This document shows positions 1 through 9,279 of a DNA stretch of 16,814 nucleotides, piece after piece. Position numbers and translations under genes: made by a program. Under the pieces are notes generated by a model, which ran no database searches, had not been told where the DNA came from, and was given only the letters and a program-made list of their open reading frames with translations. This DNA comes from a virus (Duplodnaviria > Heunggongvirae > Uroviricota > Caudoviricetes): the IMG/VR virus record IMGVR_UViG_2548876962_000006, positions 1 through 16,814 of that record. The stretch is one strand, 5' to 3'. Position 1 is the stretch's first letter. Each line of letters begins with the position of its first letter.

Positions 1-519
1 TCCATTCCGGCTGGTTTTAAAGCACTGGCTGACATGAGTCCGTTTGAATCCCTGCTGATTGTGGATTTAGGCGGAACCACGCTGGATGTGGCAAAGGTTC
101 AGGGACAACTGGCAGGTATCAGCCAGGTGTTTTGCGATCCACACGTAGGCGTTTCTCTGATGGCCAATGCCGTACTGTCGGTGATGGCCACTAACGGTAT
201 GCGCACCAGTCACCACATCGCCAATACCATTATCGAACATCGCCATGATGAAGCCTGGCTGCGCCAGCACATCCACAATGACGCACATTACAACAGCCTG
301 ATGGCGGTTATTCGTGAAAAGGAAGAAACACTGAAACAACGTGTACTCCGCGCGCTGGCGAGCTTTTCGGGTTACGGGCGGGTGATGGTTGTCGGTGGAG
401 GGGCGGAGATTGTGGCACCCGCTGTCCGCGAAGCCTGCGGAGTTAATGCGACTTTTATCGCGGACGGGGTGCCACAGTTTGCTCTGGTTAATGGGCTGTA
501 CGCAATGGACAAGGAGTAA
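1..519 (+). CDS. parM: ParM/StbA-like actin-type plasmid segregation ATPase, C-terminal part (5' end lies outside the window)
   Basis: Frame 1 is open from base 1 to the TAA at 517-519. The translation contains actin-fold motifs (LLIVDLGGTTLDVA; RVMVVGGGAEIV) and a C-terminus (FALVNGLYAM) resembling R1 ParM. A parR-like gene follows 4 bp downstream. Confidence 0.7.
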   Translation, partial: SIPAGFKALADMSPFESLLIVDLGGTTLDVAKVQGQLAGISQVFCDPHVGVSLMANAVLSVMATNGMRTSHHIANTIIEHRHDEAWLRQHIHNDAHYNSLMAVIREKEETLKQRVLRALASFSGYGRVMVVGGGAEIVAPAVREACGVNATFIADGVPQFALVNGLYAMDKE

Positions 520-523
520 ACCA

Positions 524-835
524 ATGACGACACCAACCAGACGGATAAGTTTCTATCTGAAGCCTGCAGCCGTCAAGAACGAAAGCGAAGCATGCGCCTG
601 GCTGGACAGCCTTACACCAGAAGCCCGCAAAAGCGGCCAGCGTGTGGCTTTTCTGGCCGGGCTGGCACTTCTGAAGACGAATCCGGCAGAGGCTTACCGG
701 CTGGCTGCATGGGCTGACGATGAGCCGTTACCCGTGACACAGGTCAGAGAGGAAAAAACCAAAGCACAGGCTGCGCCAGAGGCGCAGCCAACCAGCCAGA
801 TGGCCGCAAACATCAGAGCGTTATTCCCCGAATAA
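524..835 (+). CDS. parR: ParR-like centromere-binding adaptor (ribbon-helix-helix)
   Basis: ATG at 524 preceded by AAGGAG at 511-516. The N-terminus (RRISFYLKP...AWLDSLTPEARKSGQRVAFLAGLALL) and C-terminus (IRALFPE) resemble R1 ParR as recalled. The upstream part of the 389-835 ORF overlaps parM and is not used. Confidence 0.65.
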   Translation: MTTPTRRISFYLKPAAVKNESEACAWLDSLTPEARKSGQRVAFLAGLALLKTNPAEAYRLAAWADDEPLPVTQVREEKTKAQAAPEAQPTSQMAANIRALFPE

Positions 836-2045: not shown

Positions 2046-2581
2046 GCAAGATTGACTATCAGGCACTGCGTGAAGCGGCAGAGCAGGCAATACATGATGA
2101 CTGGGGATATGATGCGGATATTTTCCATGAACAGGTGACACCATCGGGTGTGCTGGCGTTGCTGGATGAGAATGAAAGAATGTGCTGCAACCTCATCGCC
2201 CGCAATGGTGAGATTGAAGGGCTTCGAAGGCGGGCTGCTGAACTGGAAAAAATCGCCACGGACTATGCACTTAAATTCCAGAAAGCACAGGATGCACTAA
2301 AGTACGCCGTGTTAATGCGTAACAAAGCGCTTTCTTTTGAAGAGGCGATGCAATGTACAAAAGAAAAATACGAGGGAGTCATAAAAAAACTTGCCAAAAA
2401 CGAGCATCCAGTCTCACCAATACCAAAACCAGAGAATGACAAATTTACCGTATCGATCCCGGACCCAAAGGAGTATTTCATTAACGGCGTATTCCAGCCT
2501 TTGCGATACGAACGGGATGTTGAGCAAGCCATCATAAAGGCAGGCGGAAAAGTCTCGTGGCAGGAGACAGAAGATAATTAG
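2042..2581 (+). CDS. ead/Ea22-like family protein (lambdoid-phage accessory protein)
   Basis: N-terminus MSKIDYQALREAAEQA and the following coiled-coil segment (LLDENERM...GEIEGLRRRAAELEK) are typical of the Ea22-like family found in lambdoid prophage early-left regions. Start is coupled to the upstream gene. Confidence 0.6.
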   Translation: MSKIDYQALREAAEQAIHDDWGYDADIFHEQVTPSGVLALLDENERMCCNLIARNGEIEGLRRRAAELEKIATDYALKFQKAQDALKYAVLMRNKALSFEEAMQCTKEKYEGVIKKLAKNEHPVSPIPKPENDKFTVSIPDPKEYFINGVFQPLRYERDVEQAIIKAGGKVSWQETEDN

Positions 2582-2594
2582 ATCCACGACAAAC

Positions 2595-2620
2595 CAGGGC
2601 GATAATCACACATCGCCCTG
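2595..2620 (+). terminator. GC-rich hairpin (9-bp stem, 8-nt loop) 14 nt after the Ea22-like stop; possible terminator or RNA-processing structure
   Basis: CAGGGCGAT (2595-2603) pairs with ATCGCCCTG (2612-2620). No immediate U-tract; the nearest T-run is at 2647-2654, so intrinsic-terminator status is uncertain. Confidence 0.3.
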
Positions 2621-2621
2621 C

Positions 2622-2648
2622 TGCACAATAGTGCACAAATTTGCACAA
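2622..2648. promoter_or_regulatory. Three direct TGCACAA repeats with exact 10-bp phasing (iteron- or operator-like); a fourth copy at 2714-2720
   Basis: Read directly: TGCACAA at 2622-2628, 2632-2638 and 2642-2648, plus 2714-2720. Nearby are GGATCCGT direct repeats (2692-2699, 2703-2710) and the 14-bp palindrome AAAAACGCGTTTTT (2721-2734). Confidence 0.5.
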
Positions 2649-2962
2649 TTTTTTTGAACGACTTTTTACCCTTCCGGCCCGCGTGGCGGCTGGATCCGTA
2701 AAGGATCCGTGCGTGCACAAAAAAACGCGTTTTTGTTGCGCGCGGGTGCCGGGGGAACAGCCCGCAATTTGGGGTCTGAAAGCACCCTCAGAAAGCGCCA
2801 GAAATGCGGCTGATTGCGCCCCTGACGCGATGTTTTTTGTTGGGGTATCGTGTGTATTGCGCGATCTCATTCGCACTCTGTGGCTTGTTCTGGATGTGTG
2901 GTGCAGTCCGCGCCATTGAGGAGCGTGACAGGATACAGATGACATCAACAGAAGGAGGAGCC

Positions 2963-3466
2963 GTGGGACACTTTGAGGATTTGTGTTGCATTAACCGGGA
3001 TGTGGAAAGAAAGCGTTATCGGGCCACTGAAATCTTACGGGATGAGGCCCGTAGCCTGGTCGGGTTTTATGAGGACTGGCTGGGGCTTCCGTCGCTGTAC
3101 CGCGAACACGAACACGGCGAGTCGCGGCCTTATGTGGAAACAGGCCTGCCCTGTCGGAACGCGGAAGACTTTCGCGCCTGTTCTGTTAATCAAATCCCTG
3201 TCGCAGCAGACGGTATTTTCCATGTGGCCGTGCGTACATGGATTGAATCACTGTCGGGTATTGAGCCGGTTGATATTGTTGTTGCGTTTGAGTTGCATTC
3301 GGTGAGCGAAGCTCGCACTACGCTGAAAGTCACCGTGGAGGATGATGTTTCTGTTCGCGTGAGCATTACTGCGCCGGAAGACAGGAAATGGACGGGGGTG
3401 ACGAAAAGCATGAAAAGACACATCGCCGTCCGTCTGAAAAAACGCGCTCCGTTTGCACTTCGTTAA
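2963..3466 (+). CDS. Hypothetical protein (about 167 aa), unknown function, last gene before the Q stop and cos region
   Basis: Open frame 2804-3466. Best start by RBS is GTG 2963 (AAGGAGGAG at 2952-2960); alternatives are ATG 2939 and ATG 2804, the latter adding a hydrophobic Cys-rich N-terminus. No family recognised. Confidence 0.45.
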   Translation: MGHFEDLCCINRDVERKRYRATEILRDEARSLVGFYEDWLGLPSLYREHEHGESRPYVETGLPCRNAEDFRACSVNQIPVAADGIFHVAVRTWIESLSGIEPVDIVVAFELHSVSEARTTLKVTVEDDVSVRVSITAPEDRKWTGVTKSMKRHIAVRLKKRAPFALR

Positions 3467-3482
3467 GCCGGAGCTGGTGAGT

Positions 3483-3507
3483 CGGGGCATAAATTTTTTA
3501 TGCCCCG
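3483..3507. terminator. Perfect 11-bp-stem hairpin (CGGGGCATAAA-TTT-TTTATGCCCCG) between convergent genes; candidate bidirectional terminator and/or cos-associated structure
   Basis: Read directly. It lies in the 67-bp gap between the plus-strand gene ending 3466 and the minus-strand Q gene ending 3534. No flanking U-tract on either strand. Confidence 0.35.
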
Positions 3508-3533
3508 GCGAAGCAGCAGACAAGCGCAGCGCG

Positions 3534-4583
3534 TCAGGATGTGGGCGGGGCATCCAGCAGTGCGTAAGGGTTAAAGCGGATCACCTCCTCACCCAGCCAG
3601 TCATTAACGTGCTTCATCGCCTCCATCACCGGCATCAGTTCGTTGATCGCAAACACTCTTGCCGCCTTCTCCACATCACCAAATGACCCCTGTCCGCTGG
3701 GCATTGCGCCCATCAGTTGTGGTGGTACGCGGTGAGCAGCCAGCACATCATCGCGGGAGGCCGCCTTGACGTTCATAAACTCATCCCGGGCGGTGATCTG
3801 CTGGAACGGCAGGATTTGCACACCGTCCTTCCCGCCGTTCGGTGCCTGGAGCAGCAGGTTTTTGAATGCCCCACCGCCTCTTGCACCCTGCAACGCTCTT
3901 TCGAGCGCCTGCATGCTTTCGCGGTCAACCTGTGCTGCTCCCACGTAAATAATGCAGCCTGCGTGTGAACCGTTGTCATAGTAGAGTTTGCGAAAACGAT
4001 CTGCCGAATGCGACAGACTGGCAGACAACAGGCCGCCGAGATATTCCGGCATTCCGTACATCTCCTGGTTGATGTCAGGGTTCAGCACATGACAGACGCG
4101 CCCCTGACGGAACTCGTGGTCCTGCTCGCCCGTCTGTACAAACCAGTACACATCCGGCTCAACACCACGACGGACGTATTTTGCCAGGGCATGGCGCAGT
4201 TCCAGTTTTCCGCCCAGCCTGTTGGTGCGCAGTTCAAGAAACGCATTCCCGAAGACAAACCAGTCCAGCGCAAAGGCGGAGAACGCCTGCCGGGACAGCA
4301 GCCGGTGCGGAATGAAGCAGCCCAGAATGGCATTTCGTTTGAAGTACAGCGCCGACTGATGCCACGAGGTCTGCCGGGATGCCCGCGCCAGCCCGTACCA
4401 GTCAACGGGTGTTTCGTAGTACCTGCCGTTACTCAGGCAGTATGCGTTATCCAGCAGGTCGAGCGCGTGCGCATCGTAAGGGCCATCGAACGAGAAAGCG
4501 CTTAGCGACGGCTGGCGGCGCAGTGCCTCTGCCAGCTCCACGCCGTCATCGCGGCGGGTATATTTTCGTTTTTGTTTTTTCAT
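3534..4583 (-). CDS. Q: Portal protein (P2 gpQ homologue)
   Basis: 349-aa ORF, size and position as for P2 Q (about 344 aa), immediately downstream of and overlapping the terminase gene; start codon overlaps the P stop. Confidence 0.9.
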   Translation of the reverse strand: MKKQKRKYTRRDDGVELAEALRRQPSLSAFSFDGPYDAHALDLLDNAYCLSNGRYYETPVDWYGLARASRQTSWHQSALYFKRNAILGCFIPHRLLSRQAFSAFALDWFVFGNAFLELRTNRLGGKLELRHALAKYVRRGVEPDVYWFVQTGEQDHEFRQGRVCHVLNPDINQEMYGMPEYLGGLLSASLSHSADRFRKLYYDNGSHAGCIIYVGAAQVDRESMQALERALQGARGGGAFKNLLLQAPNGGKDGVQILPFQQITARDEFMNVKAASRDDVLAAHRVPPQLMGAMPSGQGSFGDVEKAARVFAINELMPVMEAMKHVNDWLGEEVIRFNPYALLDAPPTS

Positions 4584-6337
4584 CAGAACTCAATCACCCG
4601 CATTCCTGTTGCACCGTCCTCATCGCCCAGCGGCTCGTTAATGACGGCAAGCATGGTTGCCCACGCGAGGTCGCCGTGGTTTACGCCGCGCGTGCGGTCT
4701 GTTTCATACGTTATTGCGCCGCCCGCCGTTTTTGCCTTGCGCACGGCGTTGAATGCCCTGACCAGCTCACGTTCGCCCCGGTCATACTCCCAGCGCCCTG
4801 CACGAATAATCTGCAACATCTTCAGCACAAGCGCGCGTTTGGATGCCAGCGTGAACGTGTACGGTACGGCGGCAGGCCAGAACCGCCGCACTATCTGGTA
4901 CACTGCCTCACCGTTACCGCCGGTCACGTCGATGCCAATGTGCCGGACGTTGTATTTGTGCGTGAACTGCTCAATCACACGGGCCTGCTCTTCAAATTCC
5001 AGCCCCTGCACCTGCAAGGTCTCCACCGTGCGGAATTTGCCGCCCCTGACAGCAGGTGGTACAACAACAGACAGCGCCCCGCTGTCGCCATTACCGCTGC
5101 TGCCGTTAGCGTCGTAGCCAATCCACACGGGACGATTACCCACGGGACGTGCTGCGAACGGTTTCCAGTCATTCCACTCGTCATAGCCATCCACGCCACA
5201 TCCCAGCAGGGCATTAAGATCGAAGGCGGATTCGCCGTCGCTGACAAACTCGCACATGTAGAGATTGCGGAACTCATCCGGCGTGTTCATGTTGCGGATT
5301 TTGTCGATACTGGTGAGCGTCCAGCCCAGGTCCACAGCATCCTGAATCGTCACGATTTGCCGCCACGCACTGTCGGGGCACAGCACTCCACTCTTCAGGG
5401 CGTGATGGGACACATCAATCTCCCTGCGCTCACTGCGTGGTCGCCCTGCATTCCACCGCGCGCCGTTCCAGAACTGAAACGCCTCGTGCATCTCCGATGA
5501 CGGCGTGGAAAAGTAGGTCTGCGTCAGGCCATTCAGCGTGGCCATCGCGCCTGCGACCTTGCGCAGCGTGATGAAGTTCGACACCCAGAAAAATTCGTCA
5601 AAATACAGATTGCCCGTATATGACTGTGCAGTCGCGGCGGATGTCCCCAGAAAATGCAGTTCCGCGCCACTGGAAAGCACAATTTTGTCACCGCCTTTCA
5701 GCTCGACGTCCACAGCCTGTGCCGCCTTCTGAATCACGCTTTTAAACTGAAAGGCCTGACGGCGTGAGGCTGACAAAAAAATCTGGTTTCGCTGGTACGG
5801 ATATTTCACGCGCTCATCCAGCGCACGCAGCAGTGCCTCCTGCGCAAAATACCAGGTCGCGCCTATCTGTCGGGATTTCACAATAATGCGAATATCAACA
5901 CCGGCACGGCGGCAGACTTCCAGCGCCTCATACCAGCGTCGCTGATGTTCTGCCAGCTGACCGGTGATGTGTTCGCGCAGTGCGGCAACCTGCGATTCGG
6001 AAAAATGGTTTTTCAGCTTTCGTTTTCGCGGGCTTTTTTCCGCGCAGCCCTTGCTGTCATTCAGTTTTGCGAGCTGGCGTGTCAGCAGGTCGATTTCCTT
6101 AAAATCACCGCCGCTCTTTTCAGCTTTTGAGGTCAGCTGAACCAGCCGCGCATCAATCGACTGCGTGACCCGCTCCACGGGCGGCGTTTCATCCCATCCG
6201 TCGCGCTTTTTCCACGAATAAATCGTGTTCTGACTGATACCCATCAGCCGCGATATTTCAGCGGGCGGGTAACCCTGCCAGTAAAGCTGTTTTGCCCGCA
6301 GCCTGATGAATGCGTCCTGAATCATGTCGTCTGTCAC
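4583..6337 (-). CDS. P: Terminase large (ATPase/nuclease) subunit (P2 gpP homologue)
   Basis: 584-aa ORF divergent from O, as in P2. The ORF-track start is GTG at 6337 with AGGAG directly adjacent; ATG at 6325 (MIQDAF...) is an alternative start. Confidence 0.9.
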   Translation of the reverse strand: MTDDMIQDAFIRLRAKQLYWQGYPPAEISRLMGISQNTIYSWKKRDGWDETPPVERVTQSIDARLVQLTSKAEKSGGDFKEIDLLTRQLAKLNDSKGCAEKSPRKRKLKNHFSESQVAALREHITGQLAEHQRRWYEALEVCRRAGVDIRIIVKSRQIGATWYFAQEALLRALDERVKYPYQRNQIFLSASRRQAFQFKSVIQKAAQAVDVELKGGDKIVLSSGAELHFLGTSAATAQSYTGNLYFDEFFWVSNFITLRKVAGAMATLNGLTQTYFSTPSSEMHEAFQFWNGARWNAGRPRSERREIDVSHHALKSGVLCPDSAWRQIVTIQDAVDLGWTLTSIDKIRNMNTPDEFRNLYMCEFVSDGESAFDLNALLGCGVDGYDEWNDWKPFAARPVGNRPVWIGYDANGSSGNGDSGALSVVVPPAVRGGKFRTVETLQVQGLEFEEQARVIEQFTHKYNVRHIGIDVTGGNGEAVYQIVRRFWPAAVPYTFTLASKRALVLKMLQIIRAGRWEYDRGERELVRAFNAVRKAKTAGGAITYETDRTRGVNHGDLAWATMLAVINEPLGDEDGATGMRVIEF

Positions 6338-8466: not shown

Positions 8467-9279
8467 ATGCTGACACCGGCACAGGCGCATTTTCAGCGCA
8501 CGATGGCACAACGCGCCGGACTGACCGATGACAGTCAGTCACAGACAGTGCGCACGGCTCACGAACAAATCCTGCACCGTCTGCGACTGGCACAGGCACG
8601 ACTGAAAGGCATTCAGTCAAAGGCGGCGAAAGCGGAACTGAAAAAGACGCTGCTGCCGGATTTTTCCGGCTGGATTGACGGCACGCTGGAGAGCGACAGC
8701 GGACGCCAGGATGAGGTGATTGTCACCCTCATGGTCTGGGCCGTTGACTGTGGTGATTTGCCGCTGGCGCTGCGTATCGGTGAGTACGTGGTGCGCCATA
8801 ACCTCAGCACACCGGACAGCTTCGGGCGCGATGCCGCCACGCTGCTGACAGAGGAAATCTGTAACCCGGTGCTGACGCTGGCAGGCACTGACCAGGACGC
8901 GGATTTGTCCGGGTACATCGCCCCGCTGGATACCCTCTGGACAATCGTCACCAACCGGGACATGCCGGATGAGGTTCGCGCCAAACTCTGCAAGGCGCGC
9001 GCGTTTTCCCGTCGTGCTCTGACAGATGCAGACAGTGTGACCCTGTCGCTGAAACTGCTGCGCGAAGCGATGCACCTGAACCCGAACGCGGGCGTGAAGC
9101 GCGAGATTGCCACGCTGTCCCGCGCGGTAAAAAAGCTGACCAGCAGTGATGGCGGGGAGAACAACGCGGAAAACAAAAGCACCGCGAAAACCGCCACCAC
9201 GAAAACCGCGACGAAAAAGGCAGGCAAAAAGAGCGCCACAAAAGCCACTGCCACACGGAAAAGCAAAAAATCCGCGTGA
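8467..9279 (+). CDS. M: Terminase small (endonuclease) subunit (P2 gpM homologue)
   Basis: Similarity to P2 gpM as recalled (LLPDFSGW...; ...DMPDEVRAKL...; AGVKREI...), with a Lys/Ala/Thr-rich basic C-terminal tail as in gpM. RBS GAGGAGAG upstream. Confidence 0.85.
   Translation: MLTPAQAHFQRTMAQRAGLTDDSQSQTVRTAHEQILHRLRLAQARLKGIQSKAAKAELKKTLLPDFSGWIDGTLESDSGRQDEVIVTLMVWAVDCGDLPLALRIGEYVVRHNLSTPDSFGRDAATLLTEEICNPVLTLAGTDQDADLSGYIAPLDTLWTIVTNRDMPDEVRAKLCKARAFSRRALTDADSVTLSLKLLREAMHLNPNAGVKREIATLSRAVKKLTSSDGGENNAENKSTAKTATTKTATKKAGKKSATKATATRKSKKSA

Follow-up and report, generated by a model that had tools for sequence, protein, structure and literature searches.

The cos packaging site of P2-like phages is located between gene A and gene Q, beside a hotspot of variable genes (PMC9122126), and it is the sole region that P2 and P4 have in common (PMC9122126; PMC9594776). 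Ziermann and Calendar (1990), as quoted in later papers (PMC3931495; PMC5694545; PMC9594776), attributed to P2, 186, PSP3 and P4 19-nt 5' cohesive ends and a conserved core of 55 bp. The cohesive ends published for the family are GC-rich 19-mers opening with GGCG or GGTG, that of phiRSA1 (GGTGAGGCGGGG...) being one example (PMC5694545; PMC3931495). In lambda, whose cos comprises cosQ, cosN and cosB with the elements R3, R2, R1 and I1, the repeats anchor the small terminase and position the nuclease of the large subunit, and lineage-specific repeats set packaging specificity (PMC4669245). A literature search for a description of the P88 or Xuanwuvirus cos gave nothing useful.

The DNA analysed here, a stretch of 16.8 kb referred to as the window, is a P2-like prophage of the P88/Xuanwuvirus type, and its nearest public phages are Peduoviridae of the genus Xuanwuvirus. 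A region dense in short repeats, at 2582-2962, lies between variable cargo genes on its upstream side (ParM, ParR-like and Ead/Ea22 genes) and, on its downstream side, genes for the portal, a gpP-type large terminase, a P2-family capsid and a gpM-type small terminase. The elements that frame it are the following:

34-519, ParM gene
389-835, gene of a ParR-like partition protein
2595-2620, plus strand, stem-loop CAGGGCGAT-N8-ATCGCCCTG at the close of the cargo operon, a perfect 9-bp inverted repeat picked up by the terminator scan
2837-3467, plus strand, inserted accessory-gene module between the predicted cos and the portal terminator, replacing 118 nt of locus L105 (a similar gap is found in L134)
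2939-3466, plus strand, orphan open reading frame in the accessory module, with an alternative GTG start at 2963 after AAGGAGG (2952-2958)
3534-4583, minus strand, portal protein gene (gpQ homologue; Pfam Phage_portal), the fixed right-hand neighbour of the predicted cos
4583-6337, minus strand, large terminase gene (gpP homologue; Pfam Terminase_6N, Terminase_6C and Terminase_5, plus HTH_23, an N-terminal helix-turn-helix)
8467-9279, plus strand, small terminase gene (gpM homologue; Pfam Phage_term_smal, E = 5e-37)

The portal gene Q is transcribed towards the repeats, and this placement between a variable hotspot and the portal gene is that of cos in P2, 186, PSP3 and P4. The hairpin at 2595-2620 is probably the terminator of the upstream cargo operon and would lie outside the site discussed below; unrelated hairpins take its place in P88 and 500465-2. 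At the other end, the description of 2582-2962 as non-coding stands except at the 3' edge, where RefSeq starts the orphan frame at the equivalent of 2939. The orphan frame matches phrog_5091 (function unknown) and has no Pfam or PADLOC match, and scans of the neighbouring cargo and orphan proteins with PADLOC and PHROGs gave no functional lead.

Judged from sequence comparison, the segment from 2621 to about 2775 is very likely the cos packaging site of this P2-family, P88/Xuanwuvirus-type prophage. The repeat region would then very probably be an ordinary, expected feature of the P2 family, the version found in this lineage being a predicted cos. Its components, with distances counted from the predicted top-strand nick, are these:

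2621-2765, conserved 145-bp block from the first TGCACAA to just past the GC-rich 19-mer, the proposed packaging signal
2622-2648, plus strand, distal triad of TGCACAA (starts at 2622, 2632 and 2642, spaced by 10 and 10 bp) at -123, -113 and -103, proposed terminase recognition elements
2649-2667, T7 tract (2649-2655) and T5 tract (2663-2667) beside the triad
2692-2710, plus strand, pair of GGATCCGT (starts at 2692 and 2703) inside the GC-rich spacer
2714-2720, plus strand, proximal TGCACAA at -31, 72 bp after the third distal copy
2721-2734, perfect 14-bp palindrome AAAAACGCGTTTTT
2738-2744, GCGCGCG directly left of the predicted top-strand nick
2745-2763, plus strand, predicted 19-nt 5' cohesive end (cosN) GGTGCCGGGGGAACAGCCC, GC-rich and aligning with the P2 cohesive end GGCGAGGCGGGGAAAGCAC, with nicks uncertain by 1-2 nt
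2771-2774, G-run about 20 bp past the G-run of cosN, its GG at least 90% conserved across 10 elements
2776-2807, plus strand, three imperfect GAAAGC-type repeats, CTGAAAGC, CAGAAAGC and CAGAAATGC, variant-specific

The first evidence for a cos comes from the annotated sites of the family. In the alignment, each column of 2745-2763 has its counterpart in the annotated cohesive ends of P2, 186 and PSP3 and at the start of the P4 record; in direct comparison with P2, 12 of the 19 bases are identical and 7 differ, and 3LV2017 has an intermediate form, GGCGAGGCGGGGGAGCAAG, at the same position. The GCGCGCG to the left of the cut aligns with GCGGGCG, GTGGGCA or GCGCGCA before the cut in P2, P4, 186 and 3LV2017. 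Further left, TGCA occurs at -123/-124, -111, -101 and -29 from the annotated cut in P2, 186 and P4 (the first copy of PSP3 is at -120), so that the described sites, like the window, have a TGCA triad at about -100 to -125 and, after a 72-bp spacing, a TGCA with an A-rich element about 30 bp left of the cut. Across 10 elements that include P2, 186, PSP3 and P4, the second and third TGCA of the triad are invariant columns, the proximal GCA and the A-rich run that follows it are invariant or nearly so, and the invariant columns of the alignment coincide with the TGCA motifs and cosN. The 72-bp spacing is kept in all 10 of these elements and in 74 of 75 unique IMG/VR variants, whereas the sequence of the spacer differs. 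Within the stretch that would correspond to the 55-bp core (roughly 30 bp left of the cut, the 19-mer and some 6 bp on its right), conservation covers the TGCA and A-run near -30, the left flank of GCGCGC type and the G-rich centre of the 19-mer, but neither the intervening dyad nor the GCGCGC on the right of the 19-mer. The minimal functional cos of P2 and P4 is reportedly of about 125 bp, which would fit the left boundary at -124 seen here.

The site differs from its described counterparts in several respects. Its repeat unit is TGCACAA instead of the TGCAT(T/G) of P2, 186 and P4, its spacer is unrelated to that of the P2 group and carries the GGATCCGT pair, and where P2 and P4 have the dyad CCGCCC...GGGCGG it has an A5-CGCG-T5 palindrome. 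Its terminase proteins share only 32-46% identity with those of P2, and the cos of the window is a predicted site. Counting against the prediction are the identity of only 12 of 19 bases between its 19-mer and that of P2, a bottom-strand nick without the GCGCGC flank present in P2, and TGCA positions that are 2 nt off compared with P2, an offset which means that the nick could be 2 nt further left. The cos of phiCTX (NC_003278) is likewise a P2-family site, with annotated repeat families (R4-R6) spanning the cut and TGCAGAAAAAG at -28, but its ends are of 21 nt and a single other TGCA (-109) is found within 170 bp left of the cut, so that it has no phased triad. The GAAAGC-type repeats of the window resemble in sequence the 3' half of cosN and the CAGAAAGC-like motifs near the phiCTX cos; those of phiCTX are left of the cut and those of the window right of it, and the likeness is one of resemblance rather than established homology.

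The second line of evidence is the conservation of the site among relatives. BLAST matches to relatives begin at 2621/2622 and stop at 2765, and in 103 unique IMG/VR sequences the consensus frequency climbs from about 0.35 to more than 0.9 at -123. Of 5426 complete E. coli genomes, 1150 carry the 145-bp block without an annotation. When loci with enough flank were selected by the repeats, 114 of 116 had a cosN-like 19-mer 111-114 nt downstream and the other two a near variant; conversely, in loci selected by cosN the triad never occurs more than once, and where coordinates were compared it lies at about -123. The portal gene lies 208-942 bp from cosN in all 114 loci with enough flank, and the array is unchanged beside wholly different cargo of either orientation. 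The G-run near 2771-2774 recurs in all right-flank classes and may mark the right-hand limit of the cos site.

The same comparison separates the repeats noticed in the earlier note into a conserved core and a variable remainder. The three TGCACAA at 10-bp spacing and the fourth 72 bp on are there as exact copies, all four in the same orientation, and their strong conservation in homologous loci goes against chance occurrence. The phased triad TGCACAA-N3-TGCACAA-N3-TGCACAA arose in none of 200 shuffles, whereas the number of TGCACAA copies in the window, taken by itself, shows no enrichment (6 against an expected 4.8), so that the signal resides in clustering and phasing. The two copies of GGATCCGT 11 bp apart (a pair reached in 9 of 200 shuffles) and the perfect palindrome (0 of 200) are equally present, but among the features given weight besides TGCACAA they proved the least conserved. 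The consensus frequency of the GGATCCGT pair is 0.6-0.9 in the 103 unique relatives, and its copies are missing from T5282H, 3LV2017, AMSCJX04, the satellite-like island described below, P2, 186 or P4. The palindrome is broken in P88, the island, T5282H and 3LV2017, its A and T tracts being better conserved than its centre (consensus frequency about 0.6). The three imperfect CAGAAA-type repeats expected at about 2775-2805 were located, though they are weak; they occur only in close relatives, and the right flank carrying them only in the loci L003, L105, L134 and L170. These three features (the GGATCCGT pair, the palindrome in its exact form and the CAGAAA-type repeats) are lineage-specific and probably not core to the mechanism. 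The GC-rich cohesive-end sequence at 2745-2763, on the other hand, had gone unrecognised in the earlier note. The region had also been thought AT-richer than its flanks, which is not the case: its G+C is 0.538 over 2582-2962, against 0.513 upstream and 0.532 in the orphan frame. The AT-rich part is confined to 2621-2668 (0.31) and is followed by a GC-rich one at 2669-2765 (0.66).

The proposal that the region is a structured non-coding RNA locus is to be weighed against this same pattern. The stretch 2766-2915 does fold somewhat better than shuffles (z = -2.3), but it is the poorly conserved part, and for the conserved block neither strand improves on shuffled sequence (z about -1.5). Moreover, conservation tracks short DNA motifs and the constant distances between them, the sequence in between being free to vary, a consensus scan found no promoter, and a covariance-model search returned no Rfam match in 2582-2962 at E <=1. 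An RNA locus is thus extremely unlikely. The sole Rfam hit was a sub-threshold gyrA match at 3475-3528, outside the repeat region.

Another function suggested for the repeats was that of an operator or iteron array bound cooperatively by a transcriptional regulator or a replication initiator, controlling the cargo operon or the orphan gene. The repeats are indeed short, direct and phased by one helical turn, as in plasmid and phage iterons and in operator arrays, and the equivalent TGCA triad of P2 overlaps the -35 region upstream of the old-tin transcript starts. In the window, however, a sigma-70 consensus scan of 2400-3600 found no promoter, and the cargo operon points at the repeats and terminates in the hairpin ahead of them. 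The replication initiator gene (A) is located away from the array, and no initiator or regulator gene is adjacent to it. The array also stays constant beside unrelated cargo and in the satellite-like island, and it is the cos cut, not any gene, that its position follows. What holds of the suggestion is that the array is of a functional, conserved, phased and protein-bound type; its identity as an operator or iteron array, with no promoter and a position tied to the cos cuts, is very improbable.

The genes upstream bring to mind a further candidate, a parC-like centromere for the ParM/ParR system, since the window encodes ParM and a ParR-like protein. Centromeres of type II consist of phased direct repeats in an array and are normally found upstream of parM. 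The array of the window is placed 1.8 kb downstream of the partition genes, and such a centromere has a negligible probability. It was discarded on finding the array in T5282H, AMSCJX04 and the satellite-like island, and as TGCAT in 186 and P4, with no ParM/ParR gene in the annotated cos-adjacent stretch.

If the region is read as a cos, the binding partner of the repeats is likely to be the phage terminase rather than repressor C or a cargo protein, because the repeats keep a fixed distance to the cos cuts and the array is found beside differing cargo and in the satellite-like island. In the mechanism that we infer for terminase binding to TGCA, for bending and for the exact nick positions, a terminase composed of the gpM and gpP homologues would recognise the site during lytic growth and would introduce staggered nicks about 19 nt apart, roughly at 2744|2745 on the top strand and roughly at 2763|2764 on the bottom strand. 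Nicking would leave the 5' overhang GGTGCCGGGGGAACAGCCC, and the 123 bp left of the cut would, by analogy with P2, become the right end of the virion chromosome. The four TGCACAA copies would act as recognition elements, three of them one helical turn apart and the fourth after a 72-bp spacer of about seven turns. This one-turn phasing and the spacer of about seven turns would bring the copies to approximately one face of the helix, within reach of a single terminase oligomer. The T tracts beside the triad, of which the T7 tract has a consensus frequency of at least 0.9 in the 103 unique relatives, possibly form an intrinsic bend or a flexible segment; the T/A tracts may help the DNA to bend or wrap, placing the nuclease on cosN. 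As to the physical ends, no public relative record or IMG/VR contig starts or ends at the predicted nick, most contigs being prophages cut from genomes. The linear record of P88_4B11 opens 78 bp to the left of the predicted nick, at the equivalent of window position 2667, but its junction is seamless, and the choice of record starts looks arbitrary in this group.

This organization resembles lambda cos in having a nicking site flanked by about 120 bp with repeated short elements (PMC4669245), a resemblance that by analogy concerns the proposed mechanism only. There is no sequence similarity between the two sites, the ends of lambda are of 12 nt and those predicted for the window of 19 nt and P2-type, and the repeats of lambda include an inverted copy and an IHF site, whereas the four copies of the window are all direct and without an IHF consensus. 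Unlike in lambda, the repeat-bearing side of the window faces away from the portal and large-terminase genes and, by analogy with P2, would become the right end of the mature chromosome.

Within the cos reading, the identity of the subunit that reads the repeats can be argued in two ways. The gpM homologue, 32% identical to P2 gpM, is the candidate reader of the TGCA repeats, and the gpP homologue, 46% identical to P2 gpP, would supply the nuclease and is possibly also a cos-binding subunit. The repeats might instead have as their reader a host architectural protein that shapes the site, or the helix-turn-helix at the N terminus of the large subunit. Such an N-terminal domain is clear in the gpP homologue (Terminase_5, HTH_23), conserved T and A tracts flank the repeats, and in lambda cosB includes a site, I1, for the host bending protein IHF (PMC4669245). 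Against a host factor, 2582-2962 contains zero IHF consensus sites (<=1 mismatch), and the motif varies by lineage (TGCAT in P2, 186 and P4, TGCACAA here) as do the terminases, which fits better with a phage-encoded reader, although with two motif classes the fit is weak. Comparing the divergence of the N-terminal and C-terminal parts of both terminase subunits against P2 gave no clear specificity-domain signal. Reading by the helix-turn-helix or by a host protein, and not by the small terminase, is somewhat unlikely.

The occurrence of the site outside phages also finds a parallel in the P2 family. The JML285 island (element L145, about 12.5 kb) encodes an integrase, a primase, an Ogr/Delta-like protein and its own P2-family capsid, and no portal or terminase gene was found in it; we infer that it is a satellite. 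When the whole 16.8-kb window was compared with this island by blastn, only 2621-2765 matched. Sharing limited to this block parallels the sharing of cos by P2 and P4, where the site is likewise common to a helper-type phage and a satellite-like element. A wider proposal, put forward tentatively and with more doubt than conviction, is that the four TGCA-core motifs constitute an undescribed, family-wide two-part module of P2-type cos sites, made of a distal triad and a proximal copy 72 bp away, and that phages of the Xuanwuvirus, Novemvirus and Reginaelenavirus types share with P2, 186 and P4 the geometry of this module though not the sequence of its spacer. In this proposal the motif variant (TGCAT or TGCACAA) might set the pairing between helper terminase and satellite, and the JML285-type island might be a new satellite lineage on P88-like helpers.

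The 145-bp block is carried without annotation by about one in five complete E. coli genomes, and recognising it as a cos would fix precisely where the cargo and defence hotspot of P88-like prophages ends on the right. A cos at this position predicts the virion genome ends for the lineage and suggests which satellites P88-like phages can mobilise, and the block, being compact, would be a candidate packaging signal from which cosmids or transducing particles of this lineage could be built. Finally, the invariant 10/10/72-bp geometry across very divergent P2-family sites provides a hypothesis for how DNA may be recognised by P2-type terminases, which are far less studied than that of lambda.

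The window is a P2-family prophage that is closest, among public phages, to P88 and further Peduoviridae of the genus Xuanwuvirus. In P2-like phages, the interval between gene A and gene Q is a hotspot of variable accessory genes adjoining the cos packaging site (PMC9122126), and additional genes between cos and Q have precedent (PMC5694545). The repeats at 2582-2962 and the genes around them are the following.

Repeats and neighbouring genes
Upstream cargo: ParM C-terminal part, ParR-like partition protein, ClpX-type zinc-finger protein, Ead/Ea22-like protein
2622, 2632, 2642 and 2714: TGCACAA direct repeats, spacing 10, 10 and 72 bp
2692 and 2703: GGATCCGT pair
2721-2734: palindrome AAAAACGCGTTTTT
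2776-2807: three imperfect GAAAGC-type repeats (CTGAAAGCACC, CAGAAAGCGCC, CAGAAATGCGG), right of the predicted cohesive end (cosN, 2745-2763)
2939-3466: orphan ORF, downstream of the putative cos block
3534-4583, minus strand: portal gene
4583-6337, minus strand: gpP-type large terminase gene, with an N-terminal HTH
Downstream, beyond the large terminase gene: P2-family capsid gene
8467-9279, beyond the large terminase gene: gpM-type small terminase gene

All the repeats listed in an earlier note on this DNA were found in place. Neither the phased TGCACAA triad nor the 14-bp palindrome arose in dinucleotide-preserving shuffles (0/200 for each), and the GGATCCGT pair was matched by chance in 9/200. 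The total number of TGCACAA copies in the window is not enriched, and the signal therefore consists of clustering and phasing. The region had also been described as AT-richer than the flanking genes, which its G+C content contradicts (0.538 vs 0.513 and 0.532 in the flanks); within it, an AT-rich part at 2621-2668 (0.31) is followed by a GC-rich one at 2669-2765 (0.66).

To assess conservation, phages, IMG/VR and 5426 complete E. coli genomes were searched by BLAST. Wide conservation is limited to a 145-bp block at 2621-2765, with matches running from the first TGCACAA to just past GGTGCCGGGGGAACAGCCC. This block is present in 1150 of the 5426 E. coli genomes, and no annotated feature lies beneath it in the 40 E. 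coli records sampled. Among 103 unique IMG/VR sequences, consensus frequency climbs at -123 (counted leftwards from the predicted top-strand nick between 2744 and 2745) from roughly 0.35 to more than 0.9. It is at least 0.9 over the distal TGCACAA triad, the T7 tract, the proximal TGCACAAAAAAA and the GC-rich 19-mer; the GGATCCGT copies, at 0.6-0.9, are less conserved, as is the centre of the palindrome, at about 0.6. On the left, the hairpin at 2595-2620 is part of the variable cargo, and relatives carry different hairpins there; on the right, 2764-2836 is a variant common to few relatives. Conservation tracks motifs and spacing, not paired regions, which, together with the lack of an Rfam hit and the unremarkable folding of the block (z about -1.5), leaves scarcely any chance that it encodes a structured RNA. 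To its right, the plus strand of 2766-2915 folds into a long imperfect hairpin (about 2788-2893; z = -2.3, 1/200 shuffles as good); this stretch, which separates cos from the orphan ORF, is poorly conserved, and a short stem in it at 2813-2831 is followed by a T6 run.

Sequence comparison indicates that the region is very probably a cos site, belonging to a P2-family prophage of the P88 type. The P2, 186 and PSP3 records begin at the annotated cohesive end, and the P4 record begins with the same 19-mer. When the right and left ends of these four elements were joined and anchored on the cut, TGCA was located at -123/-124, -111, -101 and -29 in P2, 186 and P4, with the first PSP3 copy at -120 and an additional TGCA at -35 in 186, PSP3 and P4; the window has TGCA at -123, -113, -103 and -31. 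Its 19-mer at 2745-2763 shares alignment columns with GGCGAGGCGGGGAAAGCAC (12/19 identical by direct comparison), and Klebsiella phage 3LV2017 carries an intermediate form, GGCGAGGCGGGGGAGCAAG, at the equivalent place. In a MAFFT alignment of 10 elements, the invariant columns fall on two of the distal TGCA copies (the second and third), on the GCA of the proximal copy with the A-run that follows, and on the G-rich core within the 19-mer. The third distal copy lies 72 bp from the proximal one in 10/10 elements and 74/75 unique IMG/VR variants, and the spacer sequences of the window and P2 are unrelated despite this equal distance. Loci selected by the 19-mer have at most one TGCA-N6-TGCA-N6-TGCA triad each, at about -123 where coordinates were compared; among the repeat-selected loci with enough flank, a cosN-like 19-mer lies 111-114 nt downstream in 114/116, and the remaining two have a near variant. 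The association of triad and 19-mer holds whichever one selects the loci. The portal gene lies 208-942 bp from cos in 114/114 loci with enough flank.

The earlier note had proposed a phased protein-bound array, which is reasonable, but the operator, iteron and non-coding RNA identities and the candidate binders that it offered are not supported. An operator or iteron array is very unlikely. The P2 triad does overlap the -35 region of the old-tin promoter; however, this overlap is missing from 186, P4 and the window, and a consensus scan revealed no promoter. Moreover, the cargo operon terminates ahead of the repeats, and the array stays unchanged beside unrelated cargo of either orientation, its position being tied to the cut and not to any gene. 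A parC centromere serving the upstream ParMR genes is practically excluded, because the array is retained in T5282H, AMSCJX04, the E. coli JML285 island, 186 and P4, none of which has a ParM or ParR gene in the annotated stretch adjoining cos. The type II ParM/ParR system itself (window 34-835), also found in P88 and E. coli SWHEFF_58, is an unexpected cargo for a P2-like phage that lysogenises by integration.

A cos site is as such of a well-known kind, and the predicted window copy would be an ordinary further example. P2-type cos has been described as a 55-bp core, with longer flanks raising cosmid transduction (PMC5694545, PMC3931495, PMC9594776). Contig and record ends in public records and IMG/VR are uninformative on the physical termini of this lineage. 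LR595891.1 (Xuanwuvirus P88_4B11; loci L001 and L004), the only linear record starting inside the block, is broken between the T tracts and the GC-rich spacer at the equivalent of window 2666/2667, which puts its start 78 bp to the left of the predicted nick; the junction is seamless and the break probably an arbitrary linearisation. The GAAAGC-type repeats are similar to the 3' half of the cohesive end GAACAGCCC (P2 counterpart GAAAGCAC), as well as CAGAAAGC-like motifs about 170 bp left of the phiCTX cos (L142), where repeats R4-R6 are annotated; this likeness may be coincidental or reflect a second class of cos-associated repeat.

An accessory module (2837-3467) containing the orphan ORF is inserted between cos and the portal terminator; it takes the place of 118 nt in compared locus L105, with a similar gap in L134, and its full-length variant occurs in only 2/5426 E. 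coli genomes. A GTG at 2963, preceded by AAGGAGG at 2952-2958, is an alternative start of the ORF; the only match to its product of 175 aa is phrog_5091, a family of unknown function, and Pfam and PADLOC gave no hits. At 3475-3528, an Rfam match to gyrA-RNA stays below threshold (21 bits vs a gathering score of 45, E = 0.025); it overlies a stem-loop that separates the orphan ORF from the portal stop codon and is most likely the terminator of the portal operon, equivalent to P2 tQ.

In lambda, short sites repeated beside the nicking site serve as anchors for the small terminase and place the nuclease of the large subunit; a bend unites these sites (PMC4669245). By analogy, a terminase oligomer would read the four co-oriented TGCACAA copies, which lie on roughly one helix face given their spacing of 10, 10 and 72 bp. 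The T7, T5 and A7 tracts may aid bending or wrapping of the DNA in between; a consensus scan found no IHF site in the region. A gpP-type nuclease would then nick at about 2744/2745 and 2763/2764, positions uncertain by about 2 nt because the motifs are offset by 2 nt relative to P2. Candidate readers of TGCACAA are gpM and the HTH at the N terminus of gpP. The motif is TGCAT in the P2 group vs TGCACAA in the window group, and the terminases of the window and P2 are just 32-46% identical, which would fit lineage-specific packaging, although two classes prove little.

The block is also carried by an island that spans some 12.5 kb and lies between hpt and gcd in E. coli JML285 (locus L145, about 8600-21100; NZ_AP024114.1, about 3,986,600-3,999,100), a type also present in three IMG/VR contigs (L160, L176 and L182). 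It encodes a tyrosine integrase, an HTH regulator, an Icd-like protein, a toprim primase, a second integrase, an Ogr/Delta-like zinc finger, two hypothetical proteins, a P2-family capsid protein and MazEF, with no portal or terminase gene. The major capsid protein (Pfam E = 1e-72) is 35% identical to that of the window. By blastn of the whole 16.8-kb window, 2621-2765 is the sole match. This copy is 78% identical and keeps the four TGCACAA, the T tract and GGTGACGGGGGAACAGCAC; it is devoid of the GGATCCGT pair and its palindrome is broken, a comparison that shows which sub-elements of the predicted cos are dispensable. Window and island, sharing the cos block alone, parallel P2 and P4, whose sole common region is cos (PMC9122126; PMC9594776), and the island lends independent support to the cos reading. 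The residual interest of the site lies in a family-wide, geometry-constrained TGCA module, in its lineage-specific motif variant and in a capsid-encoding, satellite-like island with the same cos, which may represent a satellite lineage dependent on P88-like helpers and supplying its own capsid protein.
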